A DNA stretch of 62,151 nt from a virus (Duplodnaviria > Caudoviricetes). Position numbers and translations under genes: made by a program. Location: positions 1 through 62,151 of the IMG/VR virus record IMGVR_UViG_3300049203_000084. One strand, given 5' to 3'. The notes beneath the pieces are model-generated. The model did not search any database. It saw only the letters and a program-made list of their open reading frames with translations, and had not been told where the DNA came from. Positions 7,675-60,497 of this stretch are shown here, piece after piece (position 1 is the first letter of the stretch; each line of letters starts with the position of its first letter).

Positions 7675-7680
7675 ACTCAG

Positions 7681-7741: not shown

Positions 7742-7911
7742 TTTTGAACCCATCTATAGGTTCTCCCTCTCCCACCCAGACTGAAGGGGTACTGGGCCGA
7801 GAGGGCTATTCGCTCGTTATCGAGCATGACGGTTATTTCAGGTGCTAACTCTTCTAGAAGTAGTCCGCTCCCACATGCGGAACACCAGAGCATTGTCATC
7901 TCGCTCAGGAG

Positions 7912-7980
7912 TGGGGCTGGCAGGAGTCGAACCTGCAACCTATGGATCATCCACTTGCTCTGCCTTTGAGCTACAGCCCC
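7912..7980 (-). tRNA. tRNA-like gene 3 with collapsed anticodon loop (pseudo-tRNA)
   Basis: GGGGCTG-TA-GCTC-AAAGGCA-GAGC...AGGTT-GCAGG-TTCGACT-CCTGC-CAGCCCC-A; anticodon arm GTGGA-TGA-TCCAT has only a 3-nt loop; no encoded CCA. Confidence 0.75.
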
Positions 7981-24992: not shown

Positions 24993-26470
24993 TGGAACGG
25001 TTAGTGCCCCGCCCAGAACAAGAAGAAGCAATCCAGGAAGTTTTGGCACACAAGAGTCACCTTTGTAGAGGGGAGACTGGGGCAGGAAAAACACTGATTG
25101 GTGTGGAAGCCATACTCAGGTCTCGCGCCAAGATTGCCCTTGTTGTCTGCCCAGTAAATACGTTTTCCGGCTGGACCAAGACGTTCCTCCGGCAGTCGGG
25201 CGGCAAGGTCCGGCCCCGCGTGATCGACTCCAAGCTGAAGGCAGGCAAGCTGGCCTTCGAGGCGCTGGTGCAGCGCGAGCCCGGTGTCTACCTCGTGGGC
25301 TGGGAGAAGTTCAGGATGTACGACTGGTCCAACATGCCACTGGATTTCACCATCGTTGATGAGGTTCACCGCCAGCAGAACCGGAGAGCAGGCACACACG
25401 CCTCGGTAATGACTACCAAGCACTCGACCTACAAGCTGGCCCTGTCCGCCACCCCGTGGGGCAATCACATCCAGGGTTCATGGGCGACTATTCGATGGCT
25501 CTGGTATGGCAGGCATGACATTGTGGGCAAGAATGACAGTTTTTGGAATTTCGTCACGATGCACATGACCACCGAGCTGGACCGCTACAGCGGCAAGAAG
25601 GTTGTGGGGGAGCGGACGCCGGGGACCGTCTGGGCCTCGCTGCCGTCCAAGTCCTACTTCCCCTCGCCGTATCAGGACGAGCCTGTCATCCACGAGATTC
25701 TGGTGCCCCTGAAGCCGACGCAGCGCAAGCTCTATGACCGCTTCGAGCAGGAAGCCATCGTGTGGCTGGAGGAGCACCCGCTGGTGGCTGACCTCCCCGC
25801 CGTCATGCGCGTCCGGCTCCGGGAAATCTGCCTCGCCGTCCCGTCCATCCGGTTCGAGTGGCAACGCATCCCGGACAATGACCTGCTCGATGAGAACTTC
25901 AACTGGGACCGCTGGGAGATGGAGGAGCGGGAGACCGGCTGGTATGCCTACAAGGAGGTGGTGTACTTCGAGGACGATGCCTTCTCCACCAAGGCCGACG
26001 CCATGCTCGATGTCATCAGTGACCTCTACGCGGCAGGGCCGGTGCCGATCCTCGTGTTCACCCACTCGGCCAAGTTCGCCACCATGTTCACCAAGCAGCT
26101 GCAGGCCAAGGGCTACAAGGCCCTGCGGTTCACGGGCGGGATGCCCCGTGAGGAGCGGGAGTGGAAAAAGGAGAACTTCGGCAAAGAGTACGACATCATG
26201 GTGTCTTCCATCGCCACCGTAGGCGAGGGAACCGATGGTTTACAGGATGTATGCAACATCGAGTTCTGGGTCTCCCTCGAAGACAACAGGCTCCTCAACA
26301 CTCAGGCCAAGGGCAGGCTCTCGCGGCCCGGTCAGAAGAAAACCGTCCAGCGGTTCCTGTTCCTCGCGGAGAACACCGTCGAGGTCAGGCAGGCTGGCAA
26401 GCTCAAAGCGGACCAGGAACAGCTGGACGCATCGTTTACCCCTCTCGAAGAACTGGAGACAGCAGCATGA
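24992..26470 (+). CDS. SF2 (SNF2-like) DNA helicase
   Basis: GETGAGKT, DEVH, SAT and QAKGRLSR motifs. Confidence 0.9.
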   Translation: MERLVPRPEQEEAIQEVLAHKSHLCRGETGAGKTLIGVEAILRSRAKIALVVCPVNTFSGWTKTFLRQSGGKVRPRVIDSKLKAGKLAFEALVQREPGVYLVGWEKFRMYDWSNMPLDFTIVDEVHRQQNRRAGTHASVMTTKHSTYKLALSATPWGNHIQGSWATIRWLWYGRHDIVGKNDSFWNFVTMHMTTELDRYSGKKVVGERTPGTVWASLPSKSYFPSPYQDEPVIHEILVPLKPTQRKLYDRFEQEAIVWLEEHPLVADLPAVMRVRLREICLAVPSIRFEWQRIPDNDLLDENFNWDRWEMEERETGWYAYKEVVYFEDDAFSTKADAMLDVISDLYAAGPVPILVFTHSAKFATMFTKQLQAKGYKALRFTGGMPREEREWKKENFGKEYDIMVSSIATVGEGTDGLQDVCNIEFWVSLEDNRLLNTQAKGRLSRPGQKKTVQRFLFLAENTVEVRQAGKLKADQEQLDASFTPLEELETAA

Positions 26471-26997
26471 AATCCCTCAACGAATACCAGCAGCAGGCAA
26501 TGTCCACCGCCATCTTCCCTGTGGACCGGAGCCTGGACTACACCGTCCTCGGCCTCTGCTCCGAGGTGGGCGAGCTGGCCGAGGCATGGCTGGACAACAG
26601 CAAAGGCTACCCCGAGGTGGCTGCCGAGGCGGGTGACTGCTACTGGTACTCCGCTGCCATCGCAGACACGCTCGAAATCCGTTTGGAGAAGGTGGTCGAG
26701 CTTTACAACGGCCCCGAGGTCTCCGGCCAACTGATTGGCAACTTCATCATCGACCTGACCCGCGTATCAGGGAACCTCGCCGGACTGGTCAAGAAGGCCA
26801 TTCGGGATGATGGTGGGCACTTCACGCAGGAGAAGGAAGCCAAGGCCATCTACTTCCTGGGCCGCACCATCCTCCTCTTGGACAAGATCACACAACAGCT
26901 CGGCACCAGCCGGTACGCCGTGATGAACGACAACTTGGACAAGCTCGCAGACCGCAAGCAGCGCGGTGTGCTTCAAGGATCAGGAGACAACCGGTAA
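26467..26997 (+). CDS. MazG-like nucleotide pyrophosphohydrolase
   Basis: LGLCSEVGE..EAGDCYWY..; C-terminal KLADRKQRGVLQGSGDNR. Confidence 0.85.
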   Translation: MKSLNEYQQQAMSTAIFPVDRSLDYTVLGLCSEVGELAEAWLDNSKGYPEVAAEAGDCYWYSAAIADTLEIRLEKVVELYNGPEVSGQLIGNFIIDLTRVSGNLAGLVKKAIRDDGGHFTQEKEAKAIYFLGRTILLLDKITQQLGTSRYAVMNDNLDKLADRKQRGVLQGSGDNR

Positions 26998-27251
26998 TGA
27001 GCAAGCGGACAACGGCGTCCCTCCTCTGGGAGCGGCAGGCCACCTACAACAAGCGCATGAGCAGCATCGAGCGGCTGACCACAGCTGCACAGGACTACAC
27101 CTTCCCGGCAGGGCAGGCGCAGGCAGGAATCCAGCTGGCCACCGTCGAGGTGCCGTGGCTCCTGGCGGAAATTGAACGGCTGAAGCTGAATCTGAAGGAC
27201 CACATCAATGACATCGAGCACCCCACCCATACGGTGGCTTCGGTCGCATGA
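26997..27251 (+). CDS. Hypothetical protein
   Basis: TAATG coupling; VPWLLAEIERL. Confidence 0.65.
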   Translation: MSKRTTASLLWERQATYNKRMSSIERLTTAAQDYTFPAGQAQAGIQLATVEVPWLLAEIERLKLNLKDHINDIEHPTHTVASVA

Positions 27252-27546
27252 CCCCGAGGCCCGCCCGCTCGGCTGCAACGGCAAGTACGGCTCTGGTGGA
27301 GCCCGCAGACATCACCGCAGAGGCGAGCCTGTGTGTGCCAAGTGCAAGGCCAGTGACAACCACTATCGCCGCGAGAAGCGCCGGGGACAGCGGCTGGCAA
27401 GGCGGAAGGCACCATGTGGCACACCAGAGGCAGCACGGCGTCACAGGCACCAAGGGGAGCCCGTGGACATGGCCTGCAAGCTCGCAGACGCAGAAGCAGC
27501 TCGGGCATACCGGGCCGCACGCAAACAATCCGTGAAAAACCATTGA
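27208..27546 (+). CDS. Basic protein with two Cys/His repeats
   Basis: C.G..GARRH.R.GEPV...CK occurs twice; start uncertain. Confidence 0.55.
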   Translation: MTSSTPPIRWLRSHDPEARPLGCNGKYGSGGARRHHRRGEPVCAKCKASDNHYRREKRRGQRLARRKAPCGTPEAARRHRHQGEPVDMACKLADAEAARAYRAARKQSVKNH

Positions 27547-27624
27547 CAGCTTTGCGCGTGGGTCTATAGATTTGTCCTGTAGCACTCCACAAATAAAAAC
27601 CACACACTGCACAAGGAGCACATT

Positions 27625-27765
27625 ATGAGCAAGCGCAACGCACTCGCAGAAGTTATCCGATACTCACGCGGTGAGGACGCCAGCGTGCGGCCCAGTGAGC
27701 AGGACTTCACCACTGCCGATGCCATTCTGGCTGAGGGCTACGCACAGACCACGAACAACAAGTAA
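27625..27765 (+). CDS. Small hypothetical protein
   Basis: Promoter TTGACA-18-TAGATT; leader with AAGGAGCAC. Confidence 0.65.
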   Translation: MSKRNALAEVIRYSRGEDASVRPSEQDFTTADAILAEGYAQTTNNK

Positions 27766-27779
27766 CCAAGGAGCATCCA

Positions 27780-28202
27780 ATGTCACCCCTGAACCTCACC
27801 GTCGATTCCCCGGCCCCGGTTGTCACCAAGCCCGCCGTCTCCGAAAACCTCCTGGAGCTGCTGGCCGAGCAGGCGCTGGAAGCCCAGCAGGAAGCCGACA
27901 AGGCCGCAACCGCCGCCAAGGCAGCCACCGAGAAGTTTCGCAAGGCCCTCGAAGCAGCTGGCAAGCTGGACGCGGACACCAAGGTTGTCGGCATCGTCCG
28001 CACCACCATCTTCCCCACGGCCCGGTTCAACGAGGACTTGGCCCGTGGCCTCCTCACCAAGAAGCTCCAGAAGGAGTGCGAGAAGACCGTCCTGGACTCG
28101 GCACTGGTCAAGGCCAAGGTCTCCCCGGAGCAGTACAAGCAGATGCAGGCCGTGACCGGCATGACCCTGAAGCTCTCCATCGACAAGGAGCAGGTCTCCT
28201 AG
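27780..28202 (+). CDS. Hypothetical Ala/Lys-rich protein
   Basis: AAGGAGCA RBS. Confidence 0.75.
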   Translation: MSPLNLTVDSPAPVVTKPAVSENLLELLAEQALEAQQEADKAATAAKAATEKFRKALEAAGKLDADTKVVGIVRTTIFPTARFNEDLARGLLTKKLQKECEKTVLDSALVKAKVSPEQYKQMQAVTGMTLKLSIDKEQVS

Positions 28203-28265
28203 CTTTCGGCTCCGATTACTCAGTAGCTACTTTTCATCCACATATCAGTAAAGCAGGAGCACACC

Positions 28266-28640
28266 ATGAACCCCACCGTCACCAAAGAGCAGGCGTGGAC
28301 CATCTTCCACGCCGACAAGATGGGCTGGCGCGAGCAGGCTGATTCAGCCCTGAAGAACATGACCGGCCCGGAGCAGCAGGCCTATCAGGTCCACGCCGAA
28401 GAGTTCGAGCTGGCGCTGGCCAAGCTCGGCATCGAGGCCCAGAACGAGGGCGCGGCCATCTGGGCCGACAACCCCAACACCCAGTTCGTGCTGGAGAACA
28501 CCAAGCCGTATGACCTGACCGCAGACCAATACTGCGCCATCATCCAGCTGTTCAAGGGCTCCAAGTTCGAGCGTCTGCATCTATCGGCCATGTTCCGCGT
28601 CCAGAACGCTGAACTCCTCCTGGAACTGGTGAAGCCATGA
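28266..28640 (+). CDS. Hypothetical protein
   Basis: CAGGAGCAC RBS. Confidence 0.7.
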   Translation: MNPTVTKEQAWTIFHADKMGWREQADSALKNMTGPEQQAYQVHAEEFELALAKLGIEAQNEGAAIWADNPNTQFVLENTKPYDLTADQYCAIIQLFKGSKFERLHLSAMFRVQNAELLLELVKP

Positions 28641-29002
28641 ACAAGATCGAATCAGCCCACGACGTATTCTGGCTGGCCCGGTACGCCCACAACACCCTCG
28701 ACCCGCTGTTCAAGGCAGCCAAGCAGTACGATCCCACCATCCAGTGGAGCATCGAGCTGACCTTTGCCGATAAGGACTCCCAGTACGCCAAGAGCAACCA
28801 CGTCACACTCAGGGCACACTGGGCACGGGAACAGCCGATCATGCTCTTTCAGGTTCCCCACCTCTACGACAAGGGGGGCGTGGACGGTGCGGCAGCCAAG
28901 CTGCAGGCCTGGATCGACGCCGAGCAGGCCAAGCTGGAGGCCGCTCACGACGCCGCTGTCTCCTACTCCATCTCGACCGTGGAAACGGGTATCGCGGCAT
29001 GA
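28637..29002 (+). CDS. Hypothetical protein
   Basis: ATGA coupling. Confidence 0.7.
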   Translation: MNKIESAHDVFWLARYAHNTLDPLFKAAKQYDPTIQWSIELTFADKDSQYAKSNHVTLRAHWAREQPIMLFQVPHLYDKGGVDGAAAKLQAWIDAEQAKLEAAHDAAVSYSISTVETGIAA

Positions 29003-29286
29003 GCAAGTCCAAGGCGTTCCTCCAGCTGATCGCAGACAACCCACCACCTTGCAAGACCATCGGTGACCCCGAGCTGTTCTTCCCGAGCTACGCCGAGGGG
29101 AACGAGTTTCAGGTCAAGCAGGCCAAGGCAGTGTGCCGGAAATGCCCGCTCACCACCCAGCTTGGCTGCCTGGAGTTCGCCTTGGACACCGATGACCAGT
29201 TCGCAGTGCTCGGCGGCACCACCCCCGCCGAGCGCACCATCATCAAACGCCGCCGAGAAGCACAAGAAGGGAGGCTGGCAGCATGA
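28999..29286 (+). CDS. whiB: WhiB-family Fe-S transcription factor
   Basis: C..DPELFFP..AKAVCRKCP..CL..AL..VLGG.T..ER. Confidence 0.9.
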   Translation: MSKSKAFLQLIADNPPPCKTIGDPELFFPSYAEGNEFQVKQAKAVCRKCPLTTQLGCLEFALDTDDQFAVLGGTTPAERTIIKRRREAQEGRLAA

Positions 29287-30074
29287 CCACGACAGCACTG
29301 GAGACGTTCACCGAGGCGGATGTCACGGCAGCGTTCACCAAGGGCTTCACCCGGCAGTCCGAGCGCGACAAGCAGGTCAAGATCGGGCCGTCAGAAATCG
29401 GCGGCTGCACCTACTGCGTCGGCTACACGATGGCCTCGAAGCTCTGCGAGATGCCCAGCCGGGATGACGGCTTCGGCTACGCCGCCTGGATCGGGACGAT
29501 GGCCCACTTCTGGCTGGAGCAGAATCTGGTGCTGGAGCACCCCGTCACCGGGGAACCGCTGGACACCCTGCGCGAGCACAAGGTGAGCGTGTTCGACATC
29601 CCGGACTACGGCACCATCAAGGGCCACCTGGACATCTACACCCCGGCCTTCCGGGAGACGGGCGACTACAAGTTCCCCGGCAAGTATTCGCTGGAGAAGC
29701 TGCAGACCTCGCTGGCCAAGCGCCGCAGGGCTCTGAACGCTGGAGACCTGGAGGAGGCAGCCAAGTACGGCCCCAGCCTCCAGTACCGCTACCAGCAGCA
29801 GCTGTACGCCCACGGACTCATCCAGCTGGGCTACGAGGTGGAGCGGTGCCGCATCATCTTCCTTCCCCGGCACACGAACGACATCCGCGATGTCATCCAC
29901 TGGGTGGAGCCCTACCAGCCCGAGATGGTGGAGAAGGCTTTGGCCCGCACCATCCTCATCTGGGAGTACGTTCAGGCAGGCCAGCTGGGCGAACTGCCTT
30001 CGGATGATGACTGCTACTCCTGCGACCGCGTGGGCCGTGGCGACCTGACCAACTACAACGAAACACTCAACTAG
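29283..30074 (+). CDS. Cas4/RecB-like PD-(D/E)XK exonuclease
   Basis: GPSEIGGC, GT..H, GHLD..DYK, Q..LY, terminal CYSC. Confidence 0.85.
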   Translation: MTTTALETFTEADVTAAFTKGFTRQSERDKQVKIGPSEIGGCTYCVGYTMASKLCEMPSRDDGFGYAAWIGTMAHFWLEQNLVLEHPVTGEPLDTLREHKVSVFDIPDYGTIKGHLDIYTPAFRETGDYKFPGKYSLEKLQTSLAKRRRALNAGDLEEAAKYGPSLQYRYQQQLYAHGLIQLGYEVERCRIIFLPRHTNDIRDVIHWVEPYQPEMVEKALARTILIWEYVQAGQLGELPSDDDCYSCDRVGRGDLTNYNETLN

Positions 30075-30083
30075 GAGAACATC

Positions 30084-30941
30084 ATGACAACCACAGACAT
30101 TGACCCCGATGAGGCCCTGGCAGCCCTTGCAGCCGAGGCTGAGGCAGCCGAAGAGAAGCCCGTCAAGAAGGCCGTGGCCAAGAAGCCCGCTCCCACCAAG
30201 GACTTGTTCGACCTGTCCAGTATCCCCGGCGTCAGCATCGGCGCACCGCGCGAGATGACCTCCAAGTTCAGCATGATGCTGTACGGCGGCAAGGGCGTCG
30301 GCAAGACCTCGCTGCTGGGTGATTGCGCCAACGTCCCGGCATGGGCTCCCATCCTCATCCTCGCCACCGAGGACGGCTCCAGTGTGCTCCACCGGGACTA
30401 CGCCGACAACCCGCTGGTGCGCGTGGTGAACATCGAGGACTGGGCTACTGCGGCCCCGCTGATCCAGGCAGTGGCCGAGAACGAGACCATCTACAAGACG
30501 GTGGCCATCGACACCCTGCCCGAGCTGCAGGAAATCAACAAGCTGCACATCACCAACGAGGGCCAGAACGAAATGCGCATCCAGGACTGGGGCACGCTGG
30601 CGGACAACACCATCAACGTGGTCAAGATGCTGCACCGCTCGCCCTACGTCAACGTCATCTTCACGGCCCACGTCGAAAAGGTCCAGGACGACGCAGGCAA
30701 GGTGCTGTACTCGCCCTACCTGCTGGGCAAGAAGTCCCTGCAGGAGGCCATGAAGCCCATCGACATCGTGGCCTACCTCGCCGTCGTGCAGGACAAGAGC
30801 ACCAAGGAAAGCATTCGTGTGCTCCAGGTCCACCCCGATGGCAAGTTCGACGCCTCGGACCGCTCCGGCAAGCTGCAGGGGCAGTACGTCGATCCCCACA
30901 TGATCGACCTCTACACGGATTTGATGGCCGAAAACCAGTGA
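30084..30941 (+). CDS. AAA ATPase (Sak4-like recombinase)
   Basis: LYGGKGVGKTS, VAIDT, IFTAH; lies between the exonuclease and SSB. Confidence 0.85.
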   Translation: MTTTDIDPDEALAALAAEAEAAEEKPVKKAVAKKPAPTKDLFDLSSIPGVSIGAPREMTSKFSMMLYGGKGVGKTSLLGDCANVPAWAPILILATEDGSSVLHRDYADNPLVRVVNIEDWATAAPLIQAVAENETIYKTVAIDTLPELQEINKLHITNEGQNEMRIQDWGTLADNTINVVKMLHRSPYVNVIFTAHVEKVQDDAGKVLYSPYLLGKKSLQEAMKPIDIVAYLAVVQDKSTKESIRVLQVHPDGKFDASDRSGKLQGQYVDPHMIDLYTDLMAENQ

Positions 30942-31041
30942 CACCCAACGAGCCTAGTGATAGGCTTTTCCCTATCGCTTACTAGTTCAGTAAGTTCTTC
31001 TCAAAAAATAACAACCCACCCATCCAGTAAGGATCACCACA

Positions 31042-31623
31042 ATGGCACGTCTTAGCCTCAACGTAGACCAGGAAACCTTCGAGAACGCCGGTCGGAGCTT
31101 CACGCCGGTCCCGCAAGGTGACTACAAGGTCAGCATCTTCGCCATCACCCCTGACGAGGTGAAGAACGGCGAGAACAAGGGCAAGCCTCGGCTGAAGTTC
31201 CAGTTCCGCATCGCGGACGGGGAAGAAGCCCCCGATGGCACCAAGCAGGGCAACCGCCGCCTGTTCTCCGACATCAACGCCTTCGACGGCGTGGACAAGA
31301 AGACCAACAAGCCCACCCCGCCGTTCGACCTCGTGGCCATCGGCAAGGCTCTCGGCTACAGCGCCGAAGACCTGAAAGACCTCGACACGGACGACTGGCT
31401 GGGCGAGGAACTGCAGGTCACCGTCAAGCACACCCGCAAGCAGCATCAGGTGAACGGCGCTTGGGTCAACATCGAGCCCGCCGAGTACCGCGAGACGGTC
31501 CGGGGCTACCGCTCCCTGGCCTCCGTCGAGACCTCGGTAGCCGCCGCTGCAGCCGTCGCAGGCAAGGCCCCCGCAGCCTCCACCGGCAAGGCCAAGGCTG
31601 CCGGAGCCAAGTTCAAGCTCTAG
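31042..31623 (+). CDS. Probable single-stranded DNA-binding protein (DUF669-like)
   Basis: FTPVPQGDY..; position after Sak4. Confidence 0.7.
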   Translation: MARLSLNVDQETFENAGRSFTPVPQGDYKVSIFAITPDEVKNGENKGKPRLKFQFRIADGEEAPDGTKQGNRRLFSDINAFDGVDKKTNKPTPPFDLVAIGKALGYSAEDLKDLDTDDWLGEELQVTVKHTRKQHQVNGAWVNIEPAEYRETVRGYRSLASVETSVAAAAAVAGKAPAASTGKAKAAGAKFKL

Positions 31624-31671
31624 GCCCCCCACCCACCACGCACCAACGAACCCCAAAGGAGGTGACCCATT

Positions 31672-31698
31672 ATGTGGCGCTGGATCATTTCTCACTAG
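31672..31698 (+). CDS. Putative 8-codon mini-ORF MWRWIISH
   Basis: Extended SD AAAGGAGGTGA at 31655-31665. Confidence 0.4.
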   Translation: MWRWIISH

Positions 31699-31705
31699 CA
31701 GTACC

Positions 31706-31752
31706 GCCCAGCCTGTGAAGGCACACAGCCCGTTCGAGACGGGCGCTGGGCA
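31706..31752 (+). ncRNA. Minimal tRNA-like element 4 (47 nt)
   Basis: GCCCAGC/GCTGGGC+A acceptor; TGTG-AAGGCA-CACA D-like arm; GCCCG-TTCGAGA-CGGGC T-arm; no anticodon arm. Confidence 0.7.
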
Positions 31753-31766
31753 CTAGGCAATATCCG

Positions 31767-31790
31767 GGCCAGCGGAAGCTGGCCTTTTTA
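31767..31790 (+). terminator. Intrinsic terminator
   Basis: GGCCAGC-GGAA-GCTGGCC-TTTTT. Confidence 0.8.
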
Positions 31791-31834
31791 TCGGCAGGAG
31801 CAACGCTAATGCGTATCAAAGCAAGTGGGGGAGC

Positions 31835-34054
31835 ATGAGCCAGCAGGACGAGTTCACCACATTTCTCTGGGAAGGGCTTGAAGGCCGAGCGGTCATCGCC
31901 CTCATGGACGAGCGGGGAGCCCCTACCAACCAGCGGTTCTTCAGCTGGCCGGAGCAGAAGGCGCAGCTGCTGGGGTACACCGCCAAGCAGGCCGCGCACG
32001 ACACCTACACCTCACCGTCCCTGTTCCGGGCCACCAACGCCCGCAAGCGCAGCGTCAAGTGCATCCAGGTGGTCCACGCCGACGCCGACACCTTCAACGT
32101 CGAGGACGCCCTGCTGGAGCCGTCCGGCATCGCCACCACCTCCGAGGGCAAGACGCACCTCTACTGGAAGATCACGGACTGCCATGACCCGGCCCTGATC
32201 GAACCGCTCGCGCACTCGGTCTCGGACACCCACGACAAGGCAGAGACCGGGCTGGACAACGGCTGGGCCGTCAACAAGCTCCTCCGTGTGCCGGGAACCT
32301 CAAACACCAAGTATGACGAGCCGTTCCTTGTCACTTTCGAGAACACCGGCCTGACCTACACGCTGGACGAGTTCGCCGCAGCCTACCCGCCCGTCGAGCA
32401 CACCTCCGTGCTGAACGCGGACATGGGCGAACTGCCCAGCTACCCGGCAGCCCTGAAGTCCCTGAAGGCCTCGCCCAAGCTCCTGGAACTGCTGAACAAA
32501 AAAGTCGCGGGCAACGTGGACCGCTCCGACGCGCTGTTCCTGCTGCACAACGAGGTCTTCCGCTGCGGCGGCACCAACGAGGTGGCTTTCGTCATCGCCC
32601 AGAACCACGTCCTGAACAAGTTCAACGAGAAGAACAACTCGGACGAACTGCTCTGGGAGGACGTGCTGCGCGCCCGGTCCAAGTCCGAGATTGGTGAGAC
32701 CGAGGACGAGGAGCTGGAAGGCGTCAACGTCACCGTCGAGCCCAGCGTCAAGGACAAGTCCGTGGACTTCCTCTCGGCCACCGAGAAGGCAGGCCTGCAG
32801 CGCACGTTCGTGGATGACTACATCGCATGGGCTACCTCCAAGACCGACGCCGCGCAGGAATACCACGTCGCCTCGGCCTTCATGATCCTCTCGACCGTGT
32901 TCTCCGACTTCGGCCACGCGGTCCCCAAGTTCGGCAGGTTGCCGTTGAACCTCTGGTTTATGGTGCTCGGGGAGACCACCCGCTCCCGGAAGTCCACCAC
33001 CCGCGCGCTCGGCCTGCAGTTCATCAAGGCCCTCGCCGTGGTGCCCGAGACGGAGGGCGAGGTGGACTTCAACTATGACCTCGGCTCCGACTTCACCCCG
33101 GAAGCCCTGGACAACGAACTGCTGAAGCGTCCCAACCGCTCGGCCCTGCTGCACCGCGATGAGGCGCAGGGCTGGATTCAGGAAATGGACAAGAAGGCCT
33201 ACATGGCTGGGGCCAAGGGCAAGATGACCGAGCTGTACGACGGCCACGTCTCCGGCAAGCTGCGCGCCACGGGCGATAACAACCGGCGCGGCTCGGTGGA
33301 CGTGGCCCTGACCCTGTTTATGATGGGCATCGCCTCGCAGGTGGCTGACTACCTGACGCAGGACGACTTTCGCTCAGGCTTCCTGACCCGCTTCATCTAC
33401 ATCGAGGCCACCCCGCCGCCGCGCTCGGCCCAGTCCGACTGGCTGGAGCAGGCCGACATCCACGAGGTCAAGCAGGGTGACGAGGTGTTCACCGCGATGG
33501 TGAAGCGCATCGAGACCGCCCGGAACCACTGGGCCAGCTTTGCGGACCCCGACGCTCCCACGGTGCCGGTTCCCTGTGTGCCGGAAGCGTGGCTGCGGCT
33601 GAACAAGTTCATCACCGACGTGCTGGACGCAGCCGAGGGCCACCAGCGCCACCAGATCATCGAGGCAGCCAGTGACCGTCTCACCAAGTCCATCCTGAAG
33701 GCAGCCACCCTCCTGGCGATGCTCGACTGCTGCGACAAGGTGCAGGTGCCCCACATGCTCGCGGCCATCAACTTCGCCAGCAGCTGGTTCACCCACATGG
33801 TCAACATGGCCAACCGCATCTCCGAGTCCAGCTGGGCGCGCAGGCAGACGCAGGTTGAGGAGTTCCTGCTGGAGAAGGGCGGCACGGCCAAGTGGGAGGT
33901 GGTCTACCGGCAGTTCCGGCAAGACCTCCGGGCCGATGAGTTCCTGAAGATCATCCAGGCGCTGCAGGACGCAGGCATCATCATGGTCACCCCGTCAGAG
34001 AAGGGCGTCCGGTGGATCACCCGCGTTGACATTGATGAGGAGCTGGCCGCGTAA
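31835..34054 (+). CDS. DNA primase (RepB/AEP-like) with C-terminal P-loop-like (DUF3987-type) domain
   Basis: HADAD, TSEG.THLYW, LLRVPGTSN.K; LGETTRSRKST and RDE. Confidence 0.8.
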   Translation: MSQQDEFTTFLWEGLEGRAVIALMDERGAPTNQRFFSWPEQKAQLLGYTAKQAAHDTYTSPSLFRATNARKRSVKCIQVVHADADTFNVEDALLEPSGIATTSEGKTHLYWKITDCHDPALIEPLAHSVSDTHDKAETGLDNGWAVNKLLRVPGTSNTKYDEPFLVTFENTGLTYTLDEFAAAYPPVEHTSVLNADMGELPSYPAALKSLKASPKLLELLNKKVAGNVDRSDALFLLHNEVFRCGGTNEVAFVIAQNHVLNKFNEKNNSDELLWEDVLRARSKSEIGETEDEELEGVNVTVEPSVKDKSVDFLSATEKAGLQRTFVDDYIAWATSKTDAAQEYHVASAFMILSTVFSDFGHAVPKFGRLPLNLWFMVLGETTRSRKSTTRALGLQFIKALAVVPETEGEVDFNYDLGSDFTPEALDNELLKRPNRSALLHRDEAQGWIQEMDKKAYMAGAKGKMTELYDGHVSGKLRATGDNNRRGSVDVALTLFMMGIASQVADYLTQDDFRSGFLTRFIYIEATPPPRSAQSDWLEQADIHEVKQGDEVFTAMVKRIETARNHWASFADPDAPTVPVPCVPEAWLRLNKFITDVLDAAEGHQRHQIIEAASDRLTKSILKAATLLAMLDCCDKVQVPHMLAAINFASSWFTHMVNMANRISESSWARRQTQVEEFLLEKGGTAKWEVVYRQFRQDLRADEFLKIIQALQDAGIIMVTPSEKGVRWITRVDIDEELAA

Positions 34055-34458
34055 TGCACTCTCTCGACTACTTCACACAACGCTCGGCGGTGGATGAGAA
34101 CTTTTGCTGGGTCTGGAGTCTCCACATCACCCGAGGCGGCTACGGAAAGTTTCGTTGCGGCCCCAAGTGGTATCAGGCTCACCGAGGTGTCTACGAGGCG
34201 GTCTTCGGGAGGTTCGATGCAGGCCTGACCGTCGATCACATCTGCTTCAACACCGCTTGTATCAATCCGGCGCATCTCCAGTTGCTGACTCTGAAAGAGA
34301 ACCAGAGACGCCAACGTAGCGCATTTGCAACGTACTGCAAGTCAGGCCATCTGTTTGATGAGGCAAACACCTACATCCGTCCTACTGGGCAGAGACAATG
34401 CCGCAAATGCAACTCCCTGGCAGCACAGAAGCTCAACATGAAGAAGGTGGCGGCATGA
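34054..34458 (+). CDS. HNH endonuclease
   Basis: CWVW..GYG..AHR..DHIC..CINPAHL..N; CKSGH..CRKC. Confidence 0.9.
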   Translation: MHSLDYFTQRSAVDENFCWVWSLHITRGGYGKFRCGPKWYQAHRGVYEAVFGRFDAGLTVDHICFNTACINPAHLQLLTLKENQRRQRSAFATYCKSGHLFDEANTYIRPTGQRQCRKCNSLAAQKLNMKKVAA

Positions 34459-34730
34459 GGCAGTGCGAGTGGTGCAGCGAGGAGTTCGAGCCCACCGGCA
34501 CCGATCAGGCCTACTGCAAGCCCCGCCATGCCAAGAACGCCCGCCTGAAGCGCAAGAAGGAGAAGGACTTGCTCGCCGCCGCAGGCAAGTGCCCGACACC
34601 CTACAAGCGGGTCTACGTCAACGAGGAGCACGCCCAGCGCCGGGGACTGCTCCCCAACCAGTACCTCTACCGATGCTCCTGCGGAGCCATCCACTCGGCA
34701 ACCGTCAAGACCAAGAAGGCAGCAGCATGA
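34455..34730 (+). CDS. Zn-binding hypothetical protein
   Basis: CEWC..YC..H; CP..K..YRCSCG..H. Confidence 0.65.
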   Translation: MRQCEWCSEEFEPTGTDQAYCKPRHAKNARLKRKKEKDLLAAAGKCPTPYKRVYVNEEHAQRRGLLPNQYLYRCSCGAIHSATVKTKKAAA

Positions 34731-35149
34731 CCGCCCAAGTTGAAGACATCTTCACCGCAGACCTCACCAACGTCCAGGACAGGATGCTGCTGGGGCTCAC
34801 GCGGGCCAAGGAAATCTGGGTGCTGGCCGCACTGGCTGACCGGAAGCAGCGGCTGCTGATGGCACACGAACTGCACGCCTACGGACTGTTCAGTCTCAAC
34901 CAGCTGGCCAAAATCTGCCGGATCAGCGTCCCCACCGTGTGCCGCCACATGAAGAAGAACGCTGTCGGCGGGAAGTTCGAGCCCGAGGTGCTGTCCCAGC
35001 TGGTGTACCTGCGCAAGCTCGTCATCGTCAACCAGCCCATCCCTGTCTCCTTCATCAAGGGAGCCGTCGAGACCGGAACCTCGGTCAGCACCATCGCCCG
35101 CCTCACAGGGGCATCCGAAACCAATCTGTACCTCAAAGTCAAGCAATAG
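34727..35149 (+). CDS. HTH DNA-binding protein
   Basis: SLNQLAKICRISVPTV and SVSTIARLTG (two HTH-like motifs). Confidence 0.65.
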   Translation: MTAQVEDIFTADLTNVQDRMLLGLTRAKEIWVLAALADRKQRLLMAHELHAYGLFSLNQLAKICRISVPTVCRHMKKNAVGGKFEPEVLSQLVYLRKLVIVNQPIPVSFIKGAVETGTSVSTIARLTGASETNLYLKVKQ

Positions 35150-35158
35150 GAGCACACC

Positions 35159-35758
35159 ATGACTGTTTTAGGACTCACCGGATTTGCCCAGAGCGGCAAG
35201 AGCACTGTCGCCAACTACCTCGTGGAGCAGCACGGCTTCACCCGCCTGTCCTTCGCGGCCCCGCTGAAGCAGATGCTGCGGACGCTGAACCCCATCATCG
35301 CCTTCGAGGACAGTGGGGACACCCGAGTCGATCAAGTCCGTGTGGGTGATCTGTTCAACGGAGGCTGGACCGAGCAGGACATCAAGGCCGATACCAATCT
35401 TGGCCCTGAGTACCGCCGTCTCCTCCAGGTGCTCGGCACCGACTGTGTGAGGGCCGTGCAGGAGGACTTCTGGATTCGAGCAGCCGAGGCTCAGATCACT
35501 GACCCCGCCGCCAACTACGTCTTCGATGACTGCCGCTTCCCCAACGAGGCCCAGTTCATCGAGAGCAAGAGCCCTCTCGGCCTGTGGAACATCCGGCGCG
35601 GGGGAGTCACCGCTGTCAACGGCCACGTCTCGGAGCAGCACGCCGGGAACATGGGCGAGTTCGTCACCCTGTTCAATGACCGGACCATCGAGATGCTGTT
35701 CGAGAACGTGGATGTGGTCCTCGACTTGGTTCAAGGGCAGGAGGCTCAGGCAGCATGA
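35159..35758 (+). CDS. Deoxynucleoside monophosphate kinase
   Basis: GFAQSGKST, FAAPLK, RRLLQVLGTD, DCRFPNE, HVSE. Confidence 0.9.
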   Translation: MTVLGLTGFAQSGKSTVANYLVEQHGFTRLSFAAPLKQMLRTLNPIIAFEDSGDTRVDQVRVGDLFNGGWTEQDIKADTNLGPEYRRLLQVLGTDCVRAVQEDFWIRAAEAQITDPAANYVFDDCRFPNEAQFIESKSPLGLWNIRRGGVTAVNGHVSEQHAGNMGEFVTLFNDRTIEMLFENVDVVLDLVQGQEAQAA

Positions 35759-37911
35759 GGGTCTACCTGAGCAGCGCCGATGTCGTGACGCCTCAGTGCC
35801 TGGAAATCCTGTCACGGGTCAAGAACGACACCATTCCCAACATCGAGCTGGAGTTCAGCAAGATCGTGGGGGAGGAACTGCCGCCCAACGCCACCGTCTT
35901 TGCGATGGGCAGCTACGCGCGCCGGGGCGATGAGCGTGTGGTCCCGGCCCCGTCCGTGGCCCAGTGCCTGACCAAGCCGGACATCCTCACCCGGCTGGGC
36001 ACGGCGTTCCGGCTCTTGGCCACCCCACCCGAGCTGCCCGAGTTCGAGTACACCGTGATCGAGGACATGGTGGACGCGATGGAGTTCTTGAACTCGATTG
36101 CGGACTACCCCAAGGTCGTGGTGGACATCGAGACCTCCGGCGACATCTCGGTGGACGAGGCTGAGCCCCGCCGCATCATCTCCATCGCCATCACAGCAGG
36201 TGGCATGAGCTATGTTTTCCCGGAGGAGCTGTGTACCGACACAGCCTTCTACTTCGACTTCTGCGCGTTCATGGAGCGCAATGGCATCATCGCCGTCAAC
36301 GGCAAGTTCGACCTGAAGTATTTCCCCGACTCCAAGGTCCGGTTCGTCCGCGACACCCAGCTGGCACACTACGCACTGTTCCCGGCTGCCGGACAGCATG
36401 ACCTGAAGAACACCACCAAGAAATACTTCGGCTTCGAGGACTGGGACGAGGCCACCAAGCAGTACACCAAGAAGGCCACCTACGAGGAGGCGTGGCGGGA
36501 CGAGGAGACAGGCGCGCGGGCCGACGCCCGCAGCTACTCTGCCGGGTCCGGCTACGAGCGCATCCCCCGTGACCTGCTCTACCGCTACAACGCCTTCGAC
36601 GTGTACGCCACATGGCACTGGGATGTCCTCATGGAGGAGTACCTTGCCGATGACCCCGACTCCCAGCGGGTGCTCGAACTGCTGATGAAGCTCTCGGACA
36701 TGTTCATGGGCGTGGAGAAGCGCGGCATCCGGCTGGACATCCCCTATCTGGAGGAACTGTCCGGCATCCTGACCAAGGAGAAGGCCGAGGCCGAGGCCAA
36801 GCTGAACGAGATTGCCGAGCAGGCCATCAACCCCCGCTCGCCCAAGCAGGTCAAGGAGTGGTTCGAGGCTCACGGCGTGAACCTGAAGGGCACGGCTGAG
36901 GGCGTCCTGAACGACTTCCTGGACGGGGAGGAGCACGAGTCTCAGGAGGCGGATTTCGCCCGTCAGATTCTTGTGTGCCGGGACTACACCAAGCAGCTGG
37001 GCACCTATGTGGACGGCTACCGGAATCAGGCCGACGCCAATGGCATCGTCCGGCCCGGATACAAGCTCACCGCGTCCACCACGGGCCGTCTGGGCGGTCA
37101 GGGAGCCTCCATGCTCACCCTGCCCCGTGACAAGCGTCTGAAGAAGATGGTGCTGCCCTTCCAGGACAACCACTTCGTGGTGGGCGCTGACCTCTCGCAG
37201 GCCGAGCTGCGCGTGATGGCCTGTGAGTCGATGGACGAGTGGCTGATCGAGGCGTTCCAGCCCGGTGCGCCGGACTTCTTCGACAACCTGCTCACGCAGG
37301 CCTACCCCCGCACGGACTGGTTCGACCTCCACGGCTGTGTCAGCGAGCACACCGCCACGGAGGAGCAGACCAACTTCTACAACAACAAGCGCGCCAGCAT
37401 GAAGGGCGTGGTGTACGGGAAGTCCTTCAACCGTGGTGAGAAGGCCATCGCCAAGGCCCTGAAGATCACGCTGGACGAGGCAATCCGCCTCAGCGATGCC
37501 TTCATCCGGCCCGGTTCGATGTTCGCCCTGTGGCGCGAGGAAATCACCGAGCGCGCCATCAACGGCGAGTCCATCGTGACCAAGTTCGGCAGGCACTTCC
37601 AGTCCGAACTCATCACCCCGAAGAACCGCCAGAGCGTCATCAACGGCGCGCTGGCTTTCACCTCGCAGTCCACGGCCAACGACATCTGCCTGACGGCAGC
37701 CCTGGAGGTCAACAAGTGCCTCCCGGCCTACGGGGCACACCTCATGGGGACAGTTCACGACGCAATTTATGTGTCTGCTCCCAAAGCAGAGGTCGAACTG
37801 GTGGGGCACGTTTTGGTGCGAGAGCTGGCCAAGGCTGGGGATGCCGTCTACGGCGGGCTGGTCCCATTCGCGGCAGACTCGGGCTCGGGAGAAAATCTCG
37901 CAGCCGTCTAA
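35755..37911 (+). CDS. polA: Family A DNA polymerase with 3'-5' exonuclease
   Basis: DIETS, NGKFD, YNAFD; TTGRL, ADLSQAELR, K..VYG, VHDA. Confidence 0.93.
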   Translation: MRVYLSSADVVTPQCLEILSRVKNDTIPNIELEFSKIVGEELPPNATVFAMGSYARRGDERVVPAPSVAQCLTKPDILTRLGTAFRLLATPPELPEFEYTVIEDMVDAMEFLNSIADYPKVVVDIETSGDISVDEAEPRRIISIAITAGGMSYVFPEELCTDTAFYFDFCAFMERNGIIAVNGKFDLKYFPDSKVRFVRDTQLAHYALFPAAGQHDLKNTTKKYFGFEDWDEATKQYTKKATYEEAWRDEETGARADARSYSAGSGYERIPRDLLYRYNAFDVYATWHWDVLMEEYLADDPDSQRVLELLMKLSDMFMGVEKRGIRLDIPYLEELSGILTKEKAEAEAKLNEIAEQAINPRSPKQVKEWFEAHGVNLKGTAEGVLNDFLDGEEHESQEADFARQILVCRDYTKQLGTYVDGYRNQADANGIVRPGYKLTASTTGRLGGQGASMLTLPRDKRLKKMVLPFQDNHFVVGADLSQAELRVMACESMDEWLIEAFQPGAPDFFDNLLTQAYPRTDWFDLHGCVSEHTATEEQTNFYNNKRASMKGVVYGKSFNRGEKAIAKALKITLDEAIRLSDAFIRPGSMFALWREEITERAINGESIVTKFGRHFQSELITPKNRQSVINGALAFTSQSTANDICLTAALEVNKCLPAYGAHLMGTVHDAIYVSAPKAEVELVGHVLVRELAKAGDAVYGGLVPFAADSGSGENLAAV

Positions 37912-37979
37912 CCCTTGACACTCGTGCGCAGGGGTTACTAGATTGTTCTTTACGCAGTACAACTTACAGGGGAAAAGCA

Positions 37980-38426
37980 ATGAAGGTTCTTTGGCTCGAT
38001 CCAGGCGGGATGACGGGCGTGTGCCTGTTCAACGCAGACACCCTGAAAGTTGATCTCTTCAAGATCATTCCCAACGGGCTCACCGGCTTCCAGGAGTGGG
38101 TGGAGTTCGGAGATGTCCCCGAGCACGACGTGCTTGGCTGTGAGTCCTTCGAGCTGGAGGAGGGCACACACGGGGTGGACCTCACCCCTCTCGCCATCAT
38201 TGGCTACCTCGAATCGCTGGGGATGCCGATTGTGTGGCAGCGCCGCAACCAGCGCGGCAAAGACAAACTCATCTCGGTCTCGGTCCTGAAACGGGCCGGT
38301 CTCTATCCCAAGCGCGGGGAGTTGAAAGAGGGGCATCAGGTGGCAGCCCTCCAGCACGCACTGCGCTATCTCGTCAGTATCCGCCACCTACCCACCATTC
38401 GTTTGCTTCACCCACCACAGGAGTAA
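37980..38426 (+). CDS. RuvC-like Holliday junction resolvase
   Basis: LWLDPGGMTG, CESF, H..AA..HA. Confidence 0.75.
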   Translation: MKVLWLDPGGMTGVCLFNADTLKVDLFKIIPNGLTGFQEWVEFGDVPEHDVLGCESFELEEGTHGVDLTPLAIIGYLESLGMPIVWQRRNQRGKDKLISVSVLKRAGLYPKRGELKEGHQVAALQHALRYLVSIRHLPTIRLLHPPQE

Positions 38427-38428
38427 TC

Positions 38429-38809
38429 ATGAGCAGGTCAGTTCGGCAGGATTTTGACGTACTTCGCACGCCCCACCATGTCTACGCACGTAAGGGCGAT
38501 GTTATCGGCTACATCGGTGTGACCGTGCCCCTCTCGGACGAGCAGTTGTTCACCGTGATGGCCATCGACAACCCGGAATACGAGCGCAAGGCCATCAAGA
38601 CCGTGGTGGCCGCCACCCCGGAGGACTGGGCGCTCTACCACCAAGCCAAACGAGGCCTGCTCGCCGTCCGAGCCTACGAGGGCAGCATGGGGGCTGAGGA
38701 AGTCGAGATTCCCTGCCCCAAGCCCCGGACCGAGTACCACTTCCTGGAGACCGTGGAGGAGTGGCTGGCCCGCTGCCGGACCCTCCGGGAGGAGCAGAAG
38801 GCAGCATGA
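38429..38809 (+). CDS. Hypothetical protein
   Basis: CAGGAG RBS. Confidence 0.65.
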   Translation: MSRSVRQDFDVLRTPHHVYARKGDVIGYIGVTVPLSDEQLFTVMAIDNPEYERKAIKTVVAATPEDWALYHQAKRGLLAVRAYEGSMGAEEVEIPCPKPRTEYHFLETVEEWLARCRTLREEQKAA

Positions 38810-39015
38810 AGCAGCGCGGACGCAAGCTGGCACCGGAGCGTAAGGCGCTGCTCGACGCAGCTGTGGCAGATGGCTGGCCCATACGGCAGATCATCGCCAC
38901 CCACGGCATCGGCACCGCAACGGTGAAGAAGCACTACCCCGAGTACCGGGGCCAAGCACGAGAAGAAACTGACGCCATCCACAGGATGCGCCTGACCGAA
39001 AGGTACGCAGCATGA
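38806..39015 (+). CDS. Small HTH protein, paralog 1
   Basis: LAPERKALLD..V.DGWP..HG....TV..HYPEYRG. Confidence 0.65.
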   Translation: MKQRGRKLAPERKALLDAAVADGWPIRQIIATHGIGTATVKKHYPEYRGQAREETDAIHRMRLTERYAA

Positions 39016-39470
39016 AACCACCCGCAGTCATCTTCGACATGGACGGCACACTGTGTGATGTCAGCAGCGTCCGCCACCACATCCTGGATCGCCGTCGCCG
39101 GAACTACCACGCCTTCCACTACCTCTCGGTCTTCTGCCCGCCCATCGAGTGGGTGCGAGACCGGGCCATTGACTACAACATCGAGGGCGTCACCGTCCTC
39201 GTGGTCACGGCCCGGAGGGAGCAGTGGCGGCACCTTACGGAGGCGTGGTTGTTCCAGCACAATATCCCTCACAGTGGGCTCCTCATGCGGGCGCAGGACG
39301 ATGACCGCAAGGACAAGCTGGTCAAGAGCGACATCCTGGACTCGCTGCTGGAGACCCACGACATCCAGCACGCCTACGATGACAATCCATCTATCATCGA
39401 GCTTTGGCAGGAGCGCGGGATTCCCCACACCGTGGTCCCCGGCTGGGCAGAGGAGTACATTTCAGCATGA
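39012..39470 (+). CDS. HAD phosphatase (PNKP/PseT 3'-phosphatase-like)
   Basis: IFDMDGTL, VTAR, MR..DDRKD..VK, YDD. Confidence 0.85.
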   Translation: MKPPAVIFDMDGTLCDVSSVRHHILDRRRRNYHAFHYLSVFCPPIEWVRDRAIDYNIEGVTVLVVTARREQWRHLTEAWLFQHNIPHSGLLMRAQDDDRKDKLVKSDILDSLLETHDIQHAYDDNPSIIELWQERGIPHTVVPGWAEEYISA

Positions 39471-39542
39471 GCGCCGAGACAATCACCAAGGACCACCGAG
39501 GGTTCGTAATCGAGACCCGTGAGAAGCACGAGGATCACGGCG

Positions 39543-39794
39543 ATGCCCAACACGCTGACGCCTGAGCGCAAGGCTCTCCTGGACGAGCTGGTCAAGGACG
39601 GCTGGCCTCTGATCGAGATGCACCGGACCCACCGCTTCAGCTGGGACACGGTGCGCCGTCACCACCCGGACTACCGGGGGATGGACCAGACGGAGGCTGC
39701 CAAGCTCGGCAACACGGCGCGGCAGGTAACACTGGCAATAAGACGGAGACGCCCAACGAGGCGTGGTACGCTCACTCTTGCAACCTTGAAGTAG
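39543..39794 (+). CDS. Small HTH protein, paralog 2
   Basis: LTPERKALLD..VKDGWP..TV..HHPDYRG. Confidence 0.65.
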   Translation: MPNTLTPERKALLDELVKDGWPLIEMHRTHRFSWDTVRRHHPDYRGMDQTEAAKLGNTARQVTLAIRRRRPTRRGTLTLATLK

Positions 39795-39814
39795 AAAAGC
39801 AGGGTGTATCTAGG

Positions 39815-39848
39815 AAAGGCCCCCACCGAAAGGTGAGGGCCTTTTCTT
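39815..39848. terminator. Terminator between convergent operons
   Basis: AAAGGCCC-CACC-GAAA-GGTG-GGGCCTTTT. Confidence 0.75.
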
Positions 39849-60488: not shown

Positions 60489-60497
60489 TAGTTCAGA

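Follow-up and report, generated by a model that had tools for sequence, protein, structure and literature searches.

A conserved 47-nt three-way junction, probably a new small tRNA mimic, between the SSB-like and primase genes of related soil phages

We describe a small structured element in IMGVR_UViG_3300049203_000084 (Duplodnaviria; Caudoviricetes), a complete 62-kb IMG/VR virus record with 61% G+C, whose 62,151 nucleotides are called the window below. The element is 47 nt long and lies on the plus strand between a gene similar to those of single-strand DNA binding proteins (SSB) and a primase gene. It is well supported as a new family of structured RNA, with 24 distinct variants and strong covariation, and its form and place indicate that it is probably a new small tRNA mimic. 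An earlier note, made from the letters of the window alone, had marked in this region an AC-rich stretch, the sequence AAAGGAGGTGA, the short open reading frame (ORF) MWRWIISH, the 47-mer 7 nt after it, and a terminator hairpin with a T run. All these parts were found in their places (Table 1). The explanations which the note had attached to them fared differently, as described in the following sections.

Fold and conservation of the element

Folded alone, the 47-mer forms a three-way junction at -27.8 kcal/mol (z = -3.67), and only 1 of 200 shuffled sequences folds as well. The consensus architecture is an outer stem P1 (7 bp), a single C, a middle hairpin P2 (4 bp with a tetraloop), the linker CN, an inner stem P3 (5 bp with the loop NYCRAGN), the second strand of P1 and an unpaired A. 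On the 3′ strand P3 and P1 abut without a spacer, like the T and acceptor stems of tRNA. The earlier note had seen acceptor-like and T-arm-like helices without an anticodon arm, and these are indeed parts of the junction that is kept in the 24 variants. It was also right that a middle hairpin exists, but the 6-nt D-like loop AAGGCA which it assigned to this hairpin was wrong. The register set by the relatives gives the window TGTG-AAGG-CACA followed by a 2-nt linker: L019 reads TGCG-ACAG-CGCA-CG, L003 reads TGTAG-GTCGG-CTACA-CA, and the linkers are CA, CG or CC. The register with the 6-nt loop breaks down in L019, L003, L050, L006 and L057. The P2 tetraloop is NNNG, with GG in the class whose P1 is GCCCAGC and AG or CG in the remaining variants.

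The loop of P3 has 7 nt in 22 of the 24 variants, with the consensus N-Y-C-R-A-G-N. Position 3 is C and position 6 is G in all 24, position 4 is always a purine, position 5 is A in 23, and position 1 is T in 17. The unpaired A after P1 is found in 23 of 24 variants and the C that follows it in every one. In four variants the 3′ strand of P1 has a bulged base, and in a few P1 has only 6 bp. Contigs of two other sequencing runs carry the P3 loop TCCAAGT in place of TTCGAGA (changes at 31734, 31736 and 31739), and the same loop occurs in L015, from a different lineage. This may reflect either two circulating loop alleles or recombination inside the element.

Relatives were collected as 20 IMG/VR loci found through the primase protein (71-85% identity) and 20 metagenome loci found through a primase alignment. 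The element or a remnant of it is present in each of the 17 IMG/VR loci whose sequence covers the 5′ end of the primase gene. It lies at most 300 nt upstream in 11 of them and farther away, behind an inserted gene, in L004, L015, L017, L018 and L020, and it is split in L016. Thirteen of the metagenome loci were new: here the element is in place in eight, cut in one (L049) and behind an inserted gene in one (L056). Two metagenome loci with 47% primase identity have a 78-nt tRNA-like sequence, of the type found in the Arthrobacter phage Amigo, in place of the element, and one locus with 41% identity has the terminator alone. A second pattern search, anchored on the inner hairpins only, gave further variants, including one in a different phage. 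The total is 24 distinct variants, which score 45-78 bits with our covariance model R1.

In a MAFFT alignment of 19 variants, 93.7% of the cells are paired and 10 of the 16 pairs show changes on both sides; none of 500 column shuffles matches this. When the partners in this alignment were slid by 1-3 columns as a control, 28-59% of the cells were paired. RNAalifold, run without a supplied structure, returned the same three helices. For all 24 variants, in an alignment that was fitted to the model and is therefore biased towards the structure, 95.0% of the cells are paired, double changes occur in 12 of the 16 pairs, and again 0 of 500 shuffles match. The variants represent one phage clade plus one outlier, so that many of the double changes are inherited and are not independent events. 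The outer stem exists in the fully different versions GCCCAGC/GCTGGGC, GCCCGTG/CACGGGC, GCCTGTG/CACAGGC and CCCTCC/GGTAGGG, and the inner stem in the versions GCCCG/CGGGC, GACCG/CGGTC, ACCCC/GGGGT, GTCC/GGAC and ATCC/GGAT. P1 of L008 has lost one base on each strand and has 6 bp on both sides, while G-U pairs occur in P1 of L006 and in P3 of L019. Because it is retained with compensatory changes in the relatives, the fold is more than a product of chance; it is real and under selection. The earlier note had staked its proposal in part on conservation in relatives, which is what these figures record.

The variants differ by insertions and deletions (50 to 55 nt), and hence the element cannot be coding. 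A stimulator of readthrough or frameshifting after the SSB stop codon was considered and rejected, as this stop may be either TAG or TAA and the same indels break the frame that follows it.

R1 has a single match in the window, 31703-31754 with 78.2 bits, and the next best hit scores 14.6 bits; each complete relative genome also has one copy. This does not bear out the earlier note's view of the element as a fourth independent copy of one genome-wide type, since the tRNA-like elements at 7558-7980 (minus strand) lie outside the family. A reading as a miniature inverted-repeat transposable element (MITE), based on flanking CTAG repeats, was dropped, because each genome has a single copy and because G044, the phage genome described below, lacks these repeats. 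A pattern scan of bacterial genomes gave 85 stretches, of which 80 were scored with R1. Among these, only L064 is a member (68 bits); the others, forced by the pattern, score at most 28 bits. Separately, L170 (21 bits) falls within coding sequence and was discarded as a chance match.

Resemblance to tRNA and position in a tRNA-gene slot

In its dimensions the element of the window matches the upper half of a tRNA, with a 7-bp P1 stacked directly on a 5-bp P3 and then an unpaired A. The T-loop of tRNA is T54-psi55-C56-R57-A58, closed by the pair G53-C61, which is near-universal in tRNAs. The loop of P3 resembles this T-psi-C-R-A motif, and the positions like C56, R57 and A58 are those kept in 24, 24 and 23 of the 24 variants. 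The plus-strand RNA fits the orientation of the locus: the genes and the terminator are on this strand, and the T-loop motif reads on it only.

The position of the element points in the same direction. The only isolated phages detected as relatives are the cluster AQ Arthrobacter phages Amigo and Molivia, with similarity confined to the primase gene. Their gene order is WhiB-like regulator, exonuclease, Sak4/RecA, SSB, two annotated tRNA genes, primase, a small nuclease gene and DNA polymerase I. The order in the window is WhiB-like, exonuclease, Sak4-like, SSB-like, the element, primase, HNH and DNA polymerase. Because the flanking gene order matches, the element occupies the slot of the tRNA genes. 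One survey gives cluster AQ as the only Arthrobacter phages of the studied set with tRNA genes (PMC5513430).

A literature search at the level of titles and abstracts found no description of the element or of a phage tRNA mimic without an anticodon arm.

Other tRNA-like elements of the phage and its relatives

The window has further tRNA-like elements on the minus strand. The one at 7912-7980 is the sole tRNA called by ARAGORN and by Rfam (54.9 bits). It is a cloverleaf whose anticodon stem closes a loop of 3 nt (UGA), and because of this loop it cannot decode normally. It has no relative in IMG/VR by an exact 28-mer search. The element at 7680-7742 combines a 7-bp acceptor stem and a T arm having the loop TTCGAGA with an irregular centre; positions 7681-7741 match the mascRNA-menRNA model weakly, with 22.8 bits under a cut-off of 42.5 bits. 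Next to it, 7558-7678 is a 121-nt fold with an 11-bp closing stem and a weak tmRNA match (13 bits). R1 matches none of the tRNA-likes at 7558-7980. The shared loops reported in the earlier note do exist: TTCGAGA is found within 7680-7742(-), and the D-loop of 7912-7980(-) reads AAAGGCA. Its broader idea of several tRNA mimics in this phage fails in so far as one family was meant; in a looser form it survives, because the other tRNA-likes are odd themselves, 7912-7980 with its 3-nt anticodon loop being an example.

The tRNAs in the slot of Amigo and Molivia are also unusual, since ARAGORN reads 2- or 4-nt anticodons in three of these four genes (Molivia/Amigo: L038, 2330-2483; L039, 2188-2349). 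The first tRNA of this type keeps the loop TCCCAAGG, and between Molivia and L052 (upstream of 1501) its stem shows a compensatory change, CCGAG/CTCGG against CTGAG/CTCAG. It looks like a conserved non-standard tRNA-like.

Phage tRNA genes are usually explained by codon usage and, more recently, by escape from tRNA-cleaving defences. A conserved mimic that does not decode would indicate a third use of the tRNA shape by phages, as an mRNA processing mark or as a small decoy RNA. One may go further and suppose that Arthrobacter-type soil phages maintain a whole set of non-decoding tRNA mimics (the 47-nt junction, 7912-7980(-) and the cluster AQ "tRNAs" with 6- or 8-nt loops), which would be cut from mRNAs by host tRNA processing and, with no part in translation, would serve to mislead or inhibit some host factor reading the acceptor/T-arm elbow, such as a tRNA-directed defence enzyme. 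We consider this supposition unlikely.

The window also encodes a polynucleotide kinase (39012-39467; phrog_415, E 3.9e-39); no RNA ligase was detected among the ORFs scanned.

A lineage-restricted insertion upstream of the element

In relatives the sequence runs without a break as AAGCTC TAG CAGTACC GCCC, from the SSB stop codon to P1. The window has 75 extra bases between this stop and CAGTACC, and they contain both the Shine-Dalgarno (SD) sequence and the mini-ORF. The insertion is missing from 22 of the 24 variants and present only in the window lineage and, in diverged form, in L004. Since it ends in its own TAG before CAGTACC, the mini-ORF stops exactly where the SSB gene stops in relatives. 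The insertion of L004 has a similar length, the same place, an AC-rich start, an SD-like GGAGAGGTAGGTGA and the ORF MSGFWAWIMHF, which stops 8 nt before P1. The string TGG-NNN-TGG-ATC-AT is common to both insertions, although their MAFFT identity is only 39% and the homologue was recognised by reading the sequence. No further homologue was found: blastn-short against all loci gave only words of 10-11 nt, an exact 20-mer scan of IMG/VR gave nothing, and there is none elsewhere in the window.

Three other sequencing runs, belonging to at least two studies, contain contigs that cover the insertion of the window with 2-3 changes. These changes lie only at 31625, 31643 and 31653 (the last in an X4 contig and in an X5 contig that stops at 31663), and none is listed at 31654-31704. 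Together with the string shared with L004, this suggests that the mini-ORF may be translated and under some constraint. Judged by its distribution, the SD with the mini-ORF is a later, lineage-restricted insertion and not part of the conserved device. The case shows how a first-pass reading can take such an insertion for a piece of the conserved device next to it.

The earlier note had proposed that the mini-ORF segment folds back and hides the SD. Such a hairpin is outside the minimum free energy (MFE) fold and was rejected. The 82-nt leader folds no better than its shuffles, with z = +0.33 in the window and +0.49 in L004.

Proposed mechanism and alternative explanations

RNase P accepts minihelices made of an acceptor stem and a T arm, as well as small phage RNAs (C4 of P1/P7, CI of P4) and mascRNA. 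Our preferred reading, which we hold tentatively as somewhat short of probable, is that the element is a tRNA-derived top-half mimic at the 3′ end of the SSB operon and is cut by tRNA-processing enzymes. Transcription would make it the last structured portion of the SSB operon message, lying behind the stop codon and ahead of the terminator. The 7-bp acceptor-like stem and the 5-bp T-like arm, with a small hairpin replacing the D arm and no anticodon arm, would lead the tRNA-maturing enzymes of the host to take it for a pre-tRNA. RNase P is predicted to cut between C31705 and G31706, and RNase Z or exonucleases would trim the 3′ side at or after A31752, with CCA addition possible. The cut would separate the SSB message from its terminator hairpin, so that it would set the lifetime of the message. 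It would also free a tRNA-like RNA that is stable and has a length of about 47 nt, or of about 85 nt without the 3′ cut. In the window lineage the insertion provides a second stop codon, and its distance from the fold is the ancestral one.

A number of results weigh against this reading. The pair that closes the T-like loop is G-C in 12 of 24 variants, C.A in nine, C-G in two and T-A in one, and loop position 1 is A or C in seven. P2, with 4 bp and the tetraloop NNNG, is much smaller in its loop than a D arm, which has a 7-11-nt loop with G18 and G19, and the anticodon arm of a cloverleaf is missing. The base before the outer stem is C, and CCA is not encoded. ARAGORN does not call the element (its sole call in the window is 7911-7980(-)), and Rfam over 31500-31900 gives no match to tRNA, tmRNA, mascRNA (RF01684) or C4, even at E<=10, nor to tRNA (RF00005) at the gathering score. 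R1 detects no similarity to the Amigo-type tRNA-likes; descent from a tRNA is thus argued from position alone. No Arthrobacter tRNA with matching acceptor pairs was found in 41 sampled genomes of the genus, that of the Arthrobacter metagenome-assembled genome (MAG) into which the contig with L064 was binned. The matches to two exact acceptor-pair patterns there resemble coding sequence and none is a tRNA, and a loose acceptor-stem pattern gave thousands of uninformative chance matches in the same genomes. Two phages add to the difficulty. G003, a complete 58.8-kb genome with direct terminal repeats (locus L016), has an HNH gene inside P3, and since the element is split in this way it must be dispensable there. 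The other, G044 (L183, 491-542(-)), is a different phage, and its sole SSB-like match is a weak one at a distance of 48 kb. There the element lies between two unrelated genes and no terminator follows it. It begins 6 nt past the stop codon of one of these genes (140 aa) and is followed directly by an SD and the next gene, and an HNH gene is two genes upstream. The P2-P3 core in G044 is almost identical to that of the window clade, while P1 is wholly different and still pairs, which hints at horizontal spread or at a very strong constraint on the core.

An alternative that we regard as unlikely, though worth taking seriously, is a structural module of the 3′ untranslated region (UTR) which is not processed like a tRNA. 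Together with the terminator, it would stabilise or regulate the SSB operon mRNA by blocking 3′-to-5′ exonucleases or by binding a phage or host protein. Covariation proves only that pairing is important, no tRNA-type model matches the element, and the T-like loop and its closing pair break tRNA rules in 9 of 24 variants; the element stands 6-9 nt after the stop and 13-25 nt before the terminator in most relatives. A plain barrier, however, needs neither the 7+5-bp stack nor four near-invariant loop positions, the invariant G of the P2 loop and the conserved unpaired A, and it does not account for the use of the tRNA-gene site of relatives or for the missing terminator in G044. The pairing could also matter in the DNA, as a hairpin that is a conserved target or hot spot of recombination driven by homing endonucleases or that, next to the primase gene, serves for single-strand initiation or as an origin. 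HNH genes recur around the element (inside P3 in L016, downstream of the terminator in both L015 and L017, two genes before the element in G044, behind the primase gene in the window), the P2-P3 core is nearly identical in otherwise different phages (G044 and the window clade), the C.A at the closing pair of P3 is G.T on the minus strand, and the element is placed between the SSB and primase genes. But the G-U pairs of P1 and P3 would turn into A.C in the complementary strand, only a plus-strand RNA makes sense of the loop motif and the unpaired A, and no iterons and no AT-rich stretch are seen; an origin would be indispensable, yet the element is split in the complete genome G003. We judge a DNA-level role to be distinctly unlikely. 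For a trans-acting decoy or inhibitor RNA, directed against a host factor with the acceptor/T-arm elbow as its recognition site (such as a tRNA-directed nuclease of a defence system, or a transferase) and with mRNA processing as its production route, one can cite the other tRNA-likes of the window that would not decode, 7912-7980(-) with its loop and 7680-7742(-) with its centre, the anomalous anticodons in three of the four annotated tRNAs of Amigo and Molivia, and the accessory character of the element, disrupted in G003. The kinase of the window can be added, since cluster AQ phages encode RNA ligase and polynucleotide kinase (PMC5513430), which are tRNA-repair enzymes. Against this, no defence gene or partner was identified in this analysis, and anticodon nucleases recognise an arm which the element does not have; the proposal is pure inference. 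It appears quite improbable.

Two further explanations deserve little credence. A decaying remnant of a tRNA gene without present function would sit at just such a site, and L004 has a copy with a degenerate P1 (46 bits), L016 a split one and L053 none. However, compensatory double changes in 12 of 16 pairs, with 95% of cells paired across phages whose primases are 57-85% identical, and the matched strand losses in P1 of L008 are not expected of a neutral relic; this reading is largely refuted by the covariation and is very improbable. Still harder to credit is the ribosome-coupled attenuator of the earlier note, in which translation of the Trp-rich mini-ORF would govern how the element folds and whether transcription passes the terminator into the primase gene. 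It can point to the perfect SD, to two Trp codons in 8 codons, to the W-x-W-I kept in the L004 homologue, to both mini-ORFs stopping 7-8 nt before P1, and to the fact that no obvious primase promoter lies between the terminator and the upstream ORF (uORF) of the primase gene. But the mini-ORF is missing in 22 of the 24 variants although the layout of element, terminator and primase gene is the same, and the hairpin that would hide the SD folds no better than shuffles. The alternative pairing, of GCTGG in the 3′ strand of P1 with CCAGC in the 5′ half of the terminator, was found by eye in the window only; relatives, whose terminators differ, show no conserved counterpart by eye, and this pairing was rejected. 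The tRNA-derived mimic cut by processing enzymes, in line with the mascRNA-like RNase P substrate of the earlier note, remains the reading that we prefer.

Comparison with known RNAs

The nearest objects of comparison are the tRNA genes of Amigo and Molivia (cluster AQ, Amigovirus). They share with the element the slot, the 7-bp acceptor-type stem, the T-type arm, the unpaired A and the place upstream of a terminator. They differ in length (73-84 nt against 47 nt) and in having an anticodon arm and a variable region, and where they have a D arm the element has a tetraloop hairpin. R1 detects no similarity between the two, and the element is not called by ARAGORN or by the Rfam tRNA model.

In MALAT1 and MEN-beta, RNase P makes the 3′ end of the upstream RNA and frees a small tRNA-like RNA, mascRNA (RF01684). 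For the element we propose the same logic: here, too, a tRNA-like fold would close a longer transcript at its 3′ end. However, MALAT1 and MEN-beta are eukaryotic nuclear long noncoding RNAs, mascRNA keeps a reduced arm of the anticodon type, and its model gives no match to the element at E<=10. The C4 antisense RNA of P1/P7 and the CI RNA of P4 are matured by RNase P, have about 77-79 nt and act as antisense regulators with known targets in immunity regions. Like the proposed product of the element, they are small phage RNAs cut from longer transcripts, in which a stem with an unpaired 3′ tail mimics an acceptor end. They differ from it in their antisense role with known targets; for the element no target complementarity was found, no search aimed at it having been made, and it has no Rfam C4 match.

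The tRNA-like domain of tmRNA and the bacterial YrlA RNAs have an acceptor and a T arm, no anticodon arm and a reduced analogue of the D-loop, as the element does. In them a long helix leading to an ORF and pseudoknots, or a Ro-binding stem, takes the place of the missing arm, whereas the element is a closed junction, is far smaller and has no tmRNA match. Finally, tRNA punctuation is known from mitochondria and from mRNA-tRNA operons of bacteria (secG-leuU, for instance), in which the site of cleavage is marked by a fold of tRNA shape that separates a coding region from the signal after it. There the marks are real decoding tRNAs, while the element could be only a mark or a non-decoding RNA. 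By analogy, the element would work most like mascRNA, tRNA punctuation and the C4/CI RNAs. It is a member of none of these groups, because the family models do not match it and because the anticodon and D arms are missing.

Genome, host and gene neighbourhood

The genome is of the siphovirus type and encodes a serine integrase. Its primase similarity to Amigo and Molivia, together with the assignment of the L064 contig to an Arthrobacter MAG, leads us to infer a host of the Arthrobacter type. The features of the locus are listed in Table 1.

Table 1. Features of the SSB-primase locus of the window, in order of position.
Feature	Position	Strand	Remarks
SSB-like gene, 193 aa	31042..31623	+	Pfam DUF669 (E 1.5e-7); PHROG phrog_378 "single strand DNA binding protein" (E 1.8e-8); stop codon precedes element in relatives
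AC-rich leader	31624-31654	+	Part of 75-nt insertion 31624..31698
SD AAAGGAGGTGA	31655-31665	+	Part of 75-nt insertion
Mini-ORF MWRWIISH	31672-31698	+	Part of 75-nt insertion
Spacer CAGTACC, 7 nt	31699..31705	+	Between stop codon and outer stem; last three bases ACC conserved
47-nt three-way junction	31706..31752	+	MFE fold, RNAalifold consensus, covariation, covariance model
P1, 7 bp	31706-31712 with 31745-51	+	Outer stem
P2, 4 bp	31714-17 with 31722-25; tetraloop 31718-21	+	Middle hairpin
Linker, 2 nt	31726-27	+	Between P2 and P3
P3, 5 bp	31728-32 with 31740-44; 7-nt T-loop-like loop 31733-39	+	Inner stem
A31752	31752	+	Unpaired, 3′ of P1; discriminator-like position
A/C-rich unpaired linker CTAGGCAATATCC, 13 nt	31753..31765	+	Starts CT in 22/24 aligned variants, variable beyond
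Intrinsic terminator GGGCCAGC-GGAA-GCTGGCCT then TTTTT	31766..31790 (hairpin 31766-31785)	+	GC-rich hairpin and T run
uORF MRIKASGGA, 9 codons	31809..31838	+	Own SD AGGAG (31796-31800); TGA overlaps primase ATG (ATGA)
DNA primase / D5-type helicase gene	31835..34054	+	phrog_10514 "DNA primase" (E 1.8e-188); Pfam DUF3987

The gene of Amigo and Molivia that is syntenic with the SSB-like gene is annotated as SSB. The spacer between the stop codon and P1 has 6-9 nt in every context read, and ACC stands directly 5′ of P1 in 19 of the 24 variants.

No T run follows the 47-nt element, which is not an intrinsic terminator itself; that part is taken by the separate hairpin behind it, the best and clearest terminator-like site on the plus strand within 26000-40000. 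Most relatives also have a hairpin with a T run 3′ of the element. Weak Rfam matches to BjrC174 and isrD are restricted to the terminator hairpin. A uORF ending in ATGA at the primase start was found in 20 of the 27 loci examined, including Amigo, Molivia and L052 (MTIKGG), and five of the seven loci without it have a different gene inserted at that spot. This arrangement suggests that the primase is translationally coupled to the leader uORF.

Several relatives carry genes inserted between the terminator and the primase gene. They are HNH-type in L015 and L017 (with cysteine-rich ends, by eye) and methylase-like in L056 (by eye), and by this comparison of loci the SSB-primase intergenic region is a hot spot of gene insertion. 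In L016 (region 2376-2915), the HNH gene of about 490 nt spares the 5′ two thirds of the element and its last 8 bases. The insert begins with a second T-arm-like hairpin, GCATG-TTCGAGT-CATGC, and the start codon of the HNH gene lies partly within this hairpin.

On the plus strand, the replication module is flanked by two promoter-like sites, at 27543-27572 and 37915-37944, whose hexamers are the same (TTGACA, an 18-nt spacer, TAGATT). The ends of the record, 1-1801 and 60356-62151, form a 1.8-kb repeat of 80% identity, in which a head-decoration gene and a gene of the capsid/protease type are present twice. Either this is a terminal repeat that has diverged, or the assembly joined two strains.

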